Source: Schmidtea polychroa
Taxonomy: Eukaryota
Assembly: GCA_044892525.1 (NCBI GenBank)
Contig: CM097885.1
Location: 22,260,001-22,324,000, forward strand
Reading direction: 5' to 3'
DNA: 64,000 nucleotides
A program made the translations under genes and the position numbers. This document shows, in pieces, positions 54,741-55,727 of this stretch (position 1 is its first letter; each line of letters begins with the position of its first letter). The notes beneath the pieces are model-generated. The model saw nothing but the letters and a program-made list of their open reading frames with translations, was not told where the DNA came from and ran no database searches.

Positions 54741-55727
54741 TTAATAAAATTCGGTTGTTCGGGATCTCGTCTCGATGACGGCTCTGGTTTCAATGTTTGG
54801 GGAAGATTTGAAGTAGCTTGGTTGGTTCGTTGTTTGGACTAGCTGTTCTTCCATTGGGATACGAATACTTCTTGATTGTTCCTTTAGTTTGAGGGTTTTG
54901 TTTCTTTCTTTACTGGAATTGGGTTTGAGTGCAATCAGGCTCAGTACGGTGATGTTTATCATTAGGCTCGCCGCTAATAGGATCAATATTGTGAGGGATT
55001 CAGACTCTCTCGGTTCTATTACTTTGGGTTTGTTCATAATTTCTTTTAATTGGGTTGTATCCGCCGTTTCTGATTTTTCGGGCTTATTGAATTTGTTTTC
55101 TTCTGAGGTGACAACTTTCTTTATTGCCTCAAGGGTTTTAATCATCTTCTCGGAGTTCGTTGGGTTTTTGTTTATGGTAGTTAGGATTTCCCTTGTCATT
55201 TCTTTCAAGGTTTTCGTTACCTCATTTTTAATGCTGGGTTCCTCTTTGATGATGGAAGTTATTTTTCCTTTCATTTCCTCCAAAGATTTTACTACTGTTT
55301 CGCAATTGCTTGAACGTCCATAGGCGGTTGCTGTTACCTGTTGTTTTATTTCCTCTAATATTATTACCATCATTCTCATTGCGGCTGGATCTGTTTGGGA
55401 TTCTCTCTTTGATTTCTGACTTTGACATTGTTTGGCTAATGTTGCTATCTGGGTTCTGATAACTTTCATTTCTTGTTCTAACATTGTTTTTATTGTCTGA
55501 GCCATTTGCACTTCCGTCGAACTTTCAGTTGTTTGTGGACATTGCGAACATTGTAACTTGATTTGTTCGCATTCCTCATTGGGTTTTTCGCAGATCGATT
55601 TAAAGCTACTACATGTACTATCTTCTCTGCGATATGGGTATTCTTTCTGGCATCTGATCATTGATTCTTCTGCTTGCAGGATTTTTGGCATTGTCATTAT
55701 AATCATCATCACGATTAGGCTTCTCAT
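54741..55727 (-). CDS. Type I membrane protein, TNF-receptor-like architecture
   Basis: Signal peptide, a 6-Cys N-terminal domain, helical/coiled-coil stalk, TM (LTILILLAASLMINITVLSLIAL) and a cytoplasmic PMEE motif. Confidence 0.6.
   Translation of the reverse strand: MRSLIVMMIIMTMPKILQAEESMIRCQKEYPYRREDSTCSSFKSICEKPNEECEQIKLQCSQCPQTTESSTEVQMAQTIKTMLEQEMKVIRTQIATLAKQCQSQKSKRESQTDPAAMRMMVIILEEIKQQVTATAYGRSSNCETVVKSLEEMKGKITSIIKEEPSIKNEVTKTLKEMTREILTTINKNPTNSEKMIKTLEAIKKVVTSEENKFNKPEKSETADTTQLKEIMNKPKVIEPRESESLTILILLAASLMINITVLSLIALKPNSSKERNKTLKLKEQSRSIRIPMEEQLVQTTNQPSYFKSSPNIETRAVIETRSRTTEFY

Follow-up and report, generated by a model that had tools for sequence, protein, structure and literature searches.

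The window, by which we mean the whole 64,000-nucleotide stretch of DNA that was analysed, contains on its minus strand an open frame for an unnamed predicted surface protein of 328 amino acids, P0001 (Table 1). The gene and its place could be read directly from the window and the flanking DNA: it belongs to the cargo of a multi-copy LTR retroelement of 35.0 kb on the minus strand, which is bounded by two LTRs of 4.78 kb each and by a 4-bp target-site duplication. Together with the target-site duplication, the 99.96% identity of the two LTRs points to a young insertion. ORF1 of the element encodes 4,688 aa, with zinc knuckles, a MATH domain (aa 1080-1224), a viral fusion glycoprotein, protease, RT, RNase H, integrase, ankyrin and a C-terminal membrane protein, and it is followed by six intronless accessory ORFs in the order 151-aa ORF, TRAF, IAP, two coiled-coil-like ORFs and P0001. 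In five of the six, an AG stands within a few bases upstream of the first ATG, and in P0001 this splice-acceptor-like AG lies immediately 5′ of it; no spliced read was seen, and contigs from runs that we presumed to be RNA (their RNA origin is a guess) span the P0001 gene with no splice joint at the acceptor. Counted directly, the gene is present in at least 122 copies in the genome, with identities of 96-100% (122 scored of 883 candidates), and internal stops are absent from 120 of the 122.

Table 1. Features of P0001 and of the surrounding retroelement, in positions of the window.
Feature	Position	Strand	Basis or remark
3′ LTR, 4.78 kb	49606..54385	-	99.96% identical to the 5′ LTR outside the window
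P0001, predicted type I membrane protein (last of the accessory ORFs)	54741..55727	-	ORF, genome search and flanking DNA
Cytoplasmic tail, aa 267-328	54744..54929	-	selection analysis (omega ~0.19)
PMEE, fits the Px(Q/E)E TRAF1/2/3/5 motif	54846..54857	-	motif and copy comparison
TM helix, aa 244-266	54930..54998	-	hydropathy
Helical stalk, aa 70-213 (a long helix, then four amphipathic repeats)	55089..55520	-	relaxed selection
Six-cysteine head, aa 20-63	55539..55670	-	strong purifying selection; likeness to a TNFR CRD in language-model features only
Predicted signal peptide, aa 1-19	55671..55727	-	hydropathy
Coiled-coil-like accessory ORF, 261 aa	55804-56589	-	also in sister families
Coiled-coil-like accessory ORF, 532 aa	56731-58329	-	also in sister families
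Cargo IAP (BIR + RING)	58412..59590	-	Pfam
Cargo TRAF (zf-TRAF + MATH)	59731..61155	-	Pfam; peptide groove altered, differs among copies
Accessory ORF, 151 aa	61245..61700	-	also in sister families
ORF1 polyprotein, 3′ end	61849..64000	-	Pfam; ORF1 start 11.9 kb beyond the window

The element matches the Burro1/GYPSM1 type of Ty3/Gypsy giant LTR retroelements, a kind already known, in exceeding 30 kb, in its long LTRs, in a single ORF1 with Gag-MATH-Env-PR-RT-RH-IN-ankyrin and in a BIR cargo gene (Pfam). As far as Burro1/GYPSM1 is described in PMC6431247, the two have in common a length above 30 kb with LTRs, a giant ORF1, an Env between gag and pol, ankyrin, a BIR cargo and coiled-coil ORFs, whereas ORF1 is 4,688 aa here and 4,873 aa there, the likeness being judged from the description; no TNFR-like accessory protein is mentioned in section 7 of that article. 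The captured IAP of Burro1 (B-IAP) has been reported to protect planarian stem cells (Lee et al. 2026, as cited in PMC13465017). In the literature, covered mostly at listing level, we found no TNFR-like gene in a retrotransposon, and the main Burro1 literature may annotate this ORF. Some smaller features of the element were also seen. Between the 5′ LTR and ORF1 lies an ORF of 160 aa with a coiled coil and a RING (L022, window offset 78595-79077, minus strand), which is common to the sister families, and the LTR interior (window 50004-51049, minus strand) holds two ORFs of 111 and 121 aa with Arg/Lys-rich ends. The end of ORF1 (window 61849-62900, minus strand) encodes a further predicted membrane protein, whose ectodomain contains cysteine and whose tail has a PxExT-like stretch and a hydrophobic C-terminus.

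The earlier note on this locus, made from the sequence alone, had described a signal peptide, a cysteine-rich segment, an amphipathic helical stalk with repeats, one TM and a PMEE tail, and each of these parts was recovered; that the gene is retroelement cargo with many copies had escaped the note. The N-terminus is hydrophobic over residues 1-19, as predicted for a signal peptide, and is followed by the six cysteines of the head, C26-x12-C39-x6-C46-x6-C53-x6-C60-x2-C63. In the stalk, a longer helix at 70-110 precedes four amphipathic helices at 114-213 with a period of 3.5-3.8, and five of the six possible pairs of these four are similar beyond shuffles (p 0.002-0.04). The TM, at about 244-266, has a best 19-residue Kyte-Doolittle value of 2.59, and the excess of K/R in the 20 residues after it (7, vs 4 before) fits a type I topology. 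By hydropathy, charge bias and six constrained cysteines, P0001 is predicted to be a single-pass membrane protein with an extracellular cysteine-rich domain, as single-CRD TNFRs are. Its PMEE (residues 291-294, 25 residues past the TM) agrees with the Px(Q/E)E motif of TNFR-type tails as a sequence match only: the strict Px(Q/E)E arises in 7% and the loose (P/S/A/T)x(Q/E)E in 32% of 20,000 shuffled P0001 tails, and the loose form occurs three further times in the ectodomain.

Selection was measured directly on 60 copies that had been fetched by their BIR domain and not by the P0001 gene; 45 of them spanned at least 900 of the 987 bases and 42 were unique, which with the window copy made 43 sequences, and copies picked for an identical head were excluded as a basis of these tests. 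An allele was called shared when at least two copies had it, and such alleles were assumed to have passed through active lineages; alleles, not events, were counted, without a tree. The head showed 14 shared synonymous to 2 non-synonymous changes (omega 0.03), and 13:0 when alleles in at least three copies were taken, vs 47:80 in the stalk and linkers (stalk omega ~0.45; Fisher p=0.0002 for head vs stalk). None of the six head cysteines has a shared change; Cys101 of the stalk is Phe in 14 of the 43 sequences. Under such purifying selection the head must be a functional domain; the stalk resembles a spacer in which changes are tolerated. We narrowly favour a stalk that is a spacer and probably an oligomerising neck, and we regard a specifically trimeric neck as doubtful. 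The counts were 7:4 in the TM and 13:9 in the tail (14:8 under the other tie-break; omega ~0.19), the tail differing from the stalk with borderline p=0.06 by synonymous to non-synonymous counts and with p=0.0005 by non-synonymous changes per site; within the tail, the constraint is strongest in the last 24 residues, 305-328 (7:1), and not around PMEE. The conservation of PMEE in other copies, on which the earlier note had made its proposal depend, was found, with P in 43/43, M in 41/43 and the two E in 43/43 and 42/43, the three changes all being private, so that no change is shared among the 43 sequences, four residues having no statistical power of their own.

The head is the part on which the proposal of a TNF-receptor mimic turns. 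This proposal stood insofar as the head is a strongly constrained domain whose nearest language-model look-alikes, as a lead only, are single-CRD TNFRs; it found no Pfam or PDB match to a CRD. In the ESM Atlas, the whole of P0001 scored 0.81 and 0.79 with Grindelwald, 0.79 with a mollusc TACI/BCMA-like cluster, 0.78 with Fn14, 0.77 with Wengen and 0.75 with BAFF-R, and residues 15-75 scored 0.78 with TACI-CRD2 and 0.76 with BCMA among the matches listed. Scores below 0.9 are leads only, since one third of shuffled proteins reach 0.8; the Atlas recognition was 1746, under 2300, the whole-protein and head queries are one kind of evidence, and the Atlas Grindelwald clusters are themselves without a common Pfam family. 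A Pfam scan of P0001 with E up to 10 and the HMMER filters on gave no TNFR-family or CRD model (TNFR_c6, TACI-CRD2, BCMA, BAFF-R, Fn14), and a sequence search of the PDB gave no CRD match. Single-sequence AF2 modelled the head at pLDDT 58 as three helices, with a helix-loop-helix in the second half and a helix, not a hairpin, as the first module (pLDDT 52 for the whole of P0001). With this low-confidence model, Foldseek returned nothing at E 0.001 from PDB and BFVD, and a VIA structure search returned generic three-helix bundles only, with a best Z of 5.8. The first cysteine pair of the head, C-x12-C, has the spacing of the first module of BCMA and Fn14. In the account of PMC8024323, the C2 module of Grindelwald and Fn14 is a helix-loop-helix, like the modelled second half of the head; from the C2 consensus C-x3-C-x11-C-x3-C the head spacing C39-x6-C46-x6-C53-x6-C60-x2-C63 departs, and the Asp-x-Leu hairpin motif, absent from the head, is absent from Grindelwald too. 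Single-CRD TNFRs (Grindelwald, BCMA, TACI-CRD2, Fn14 and BAFF-R), as presented in PMC8024323 and PMC5360319, resemble P0001 in a small cysteine-rich ectodomain, one TM and a short tail that has a TRAF-type motif and no death domain. They differ from it in that P0001 has a helical stalk of 150 residues between head and membrane, another cysteine spacing in the second module, no Asp-x-Leu and no homology detected at the sequence level. On balance we lean towards a CRD-derived or CRD-like fold for the head; P0001 is not classed as a member of the TNFR family, and a mini-TNFR mimic is plausible but unproven.

Searches for relatives and donors of P0001 gave no homologue of similar or shorter length in protein collections, none among 1.84 billion representatives at E 0.001 and none in metagenome or viral contigs, and searches of its own genome with the protein or the head were saturated by near-identical copies, which may mask more ancient relatives or a donor gene of the host. 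A TACI-CRD2 search of the genome for a host source of the head gave one match, with stops, at E 1.4. The genome search with the TNF ligand model PF00229 was blank, and its controls gave no match either. The TNFR_c6 search found one host-like exon (L169, G000:C3:78915304-78915390) at 24.9 bits, below the cut-off, which could be part of a conventional TNFR of planarians.

In two sister families, the same last position is filled by proteins of 200-226 aa with a signal peptide, helix, TM and tail, 22-100% identical to each other, in which the six-cysteine head is missing and the loose (P/S/A/T)x(Q/E)E is found in 4 of 36 tails; the head, PMEE, the IAP gene and the ORF1 MATH are specific to the family of P0001 among the families examined. 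Homology of P0001 to the sister-family last ORF was considered and rejected (profile score -0.7 bits, hhalign probability 0.2%). These fast-diverging sister ORFs of about 220 aa (L040:2105-2740, L044:5967-6626, L069-L108), which are single-pass and have no Pfam match above the cut-off, carry an invariant L-x4-I-x-E-T pattern in the TM, and the sister-family membrane-protein ORF also occurs in a tandem array with a period of about 1.5 kb (G000:C1:186484394-186500108, 11 matches). Alternatively, the head could be a small binding domain with disulfide bonds and no kinship to TNFRs, with PMEE a chance match, P0001 then being a fast-evolving surface protein like that of the sister slot with a head added. 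The failure of Pfam, PDB and fold searches to support a CRD, a cysteine spacing off the published C2 consensus, a motif that chance yields in 7-32% of shuffled tails and the CRD-less membrane protein in the same slot all fit such an origin. However, single-CRD TNFRs come top in both Atlas queries, the element carries a TRAF, an IAP and an additional MATH, and homology to the sister ORF is undetectable. We hold this explanation to be unlikely, if still a serious competitor.

As to the adaptor that could read the tail, the earlier note had proposed that the receptor signals through the neighbouring TRAF, and this part of the proposal found no support. The hot spots of the TRAF groove given in PMC6125299 (R393/Y395, the serine triad and F410/F447/F456/C469) were located in the candidates by aligning these with TRAF3 and TRAF5 chains, and the residues of each groove were read off directly. 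The cargo TRAF keeps the Arg of hot spot 3, but Tyr395 is replaced by Phe, the beta6-7 loop is shortened, the serine triad and Phe456 are replaced by Ser-Pro-Ala-Gly, and Ser-Gly-Cys-Pro by Val-Gly-Val-Ala, so that most hot-spot residues are gone and it does not have a groove of the TRAF1/2/3/5 type. Among copies, the F456 position is G, W or R and the C469 position V, A, T or E, and the shared synonymous to non-synonymous count is 1:9 in the groove vs 35:29 elsewhere (p=0.014; 18 usable of 20 fetched copies). Since PMEE is unchanging while this groove varies, the cargo TRAF is a poor partner for it. The groove (window 59731-60210, minus strand; L233-L252) is hypervariable, which in its own right suggests diversifying selection on its binding target.

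The same data bear on the mechanism of the earlier note, in which the stalk would trimerise the receptor without ligand and PMEE would signal via the adjacent cargo TRAF, a scheme comparable to that of LMP1 or STP. Amphipathic repeat helices in the stalk, a TRAF gene only 4 kb away in the same cassette and the retained hot spot 3 Arg are what one would expect of it. Set against these are the altered cargo groove (Tyr395 to Phe, the loop, the triad, Phe456 and Ser-Gly-Cys-Pro), its variation among 18 copies in which PMEE has no part, and the distribution of constraint, which is least in the stalk and most in the head; ligand independence poorly explains a conserved head, whose conservation argues for a ligand over ligand-free signalling. 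We judge this mechanism very improbable.

The host TRAF3-like proteins and the MATH of ORF1 appear to be likelier partners of the tail than the cargo TRAF, judging from their groove residues. The ORF1 MATH (L022:226-723, minus strand, beyond the window) is a second TRAF-type MATH, located between Gag and Env, and its groove is near-canonical though not identical, with R, Y and F kept and W, Y and T as conservative replacements. Its triad reads S-A-C, as in the host TRAF3-like gene L170, with which it is 48% identical and shares the Arg/Tyr polar pocket, the DxRSACYxxP loop and ASGxP, the groove loop being common to the host TRAF3-like genes L170-L172. L170 is a TRAF gene that lacks introns, and the 10 kb examined there hold no Burro cassette; a MATH tree of 15 rows did not separate the element domains from host genes. 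Of 20 copies fetched for the ORF1 MATH, 10 could be used, and their grooves showed a 5:3 count in which conservative changes prevail; the other 10 stretches were other parts of ORF1 or other DNA, and the 10 used have diverged less than the copies compared for the cargo TRAF. Host TRAFs are abundant in planarians and needed for cell survival, according to PMC7586133. We put the chance that PMEE would be a working TRAF site at about even.

A near-canonical MATH on the Gag side would also allow P0001 to act as an attachment or decoy protein of particles, the MATH catching the PMEE tail so that the protein is packed into budding particles and the stalk presents the CRD-like head to target cells. 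A head on a stalk is the layout of viral attachment proteins, and this resemblance speaks for such a role, as does the position of the ORF1 MATH between Gag and Env. In the two sister elements examined, both an ORF1 MATH match and a PMEE/CRD protein are missing, although this co-occurrence, of one family vs two, amounts to a single event. It also speaks against a particle role that a different membrane protein is already present at the end of the polyprotein. Burro elements do encode a fusion glycoprotein, as stated in PMC6431247. Weighing these points, we find a particle role improbable.

Our preferred reading, to which we give a probability of roughly 45%, is that P0001 is a surface protein with a miniature TNF-receptor head and a tail that recruits TRAF2/3. 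The element would make P0001 as a single-pass surface protein, whose cysteine head, as a miniature TNF-receptor domain, may bind an extracellular partner of the host, with the stalk acting as a spacer and probably as an oligomerising neck and the PMEE tail recruiting adaptors of the TRAF2/3 type. This receptor-level input would add to the IAP, Bcl-2-like and TRAF cargo, and death-versus-survival signalling could thereby be shifted in cells that express the element. A more ambitious form of this reading, which we think quite unlikely, is a TNFR-TRAF-IAP-Bcl-2 kit assembled by the retroelement, in which a captured single-CRD receptor on a repeat-helix neck senses a planarian ligand and PMEE is read by the TRAF domain of the Gag polyprotein, coupling a surface signal to the survival of the carrier cell or to the loading of particles. 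If the preferred reading is true, the receptor mimic would extend the Burro1 strategy from caspase blocking to the point where the pathway receives its signal at the cell surface. The conserved head also lends itself as bait for the ligand that acts above the expanded TRAF set of planarians. Exploiting the death pathway at the cell surface is a known strategy of large DNA viruses, whose TNFR or TRAF-recruiting mimics include HCMV UL144, EBV LMP1, herpesvirus saimiri STP and the poxvirus Crm decoys. Common to both is that a membrane protein which exploits TNFR-TRAF signalling, as is here predicted, is encoded by a mobile genome, often next to other anti-apoptotic genes; unlike the vertebrate large DNA viruses, the carrier is an LTR retroelement of an invertebrate with two TRAF/MATH domains of its own.

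Other mobile DNA was noticed in and around the window. A Maverick/Polinton-like cluster occupies positions 398-7723, with a protein-primed DNA polymerase B (3296-7723, minus strand) and small protease-like and capsid-like ORFs on the plus strand. The retroelement itself is apparently inserted in a second Polinton-like element (window 47403-49461 and L023), of which a C-terminal piece of polymerase B is seen together with a RING ORF past the 3′ LTR, and the remaining polymerase with capsid-, integrase- and ATPase-like ORFs past the 5′ LTR. Finally, there is an intronless RRN3-like ORF at 17170-18576 on the plus strand, and a repeat array with a period of 42-95 bp at 46234-46952.
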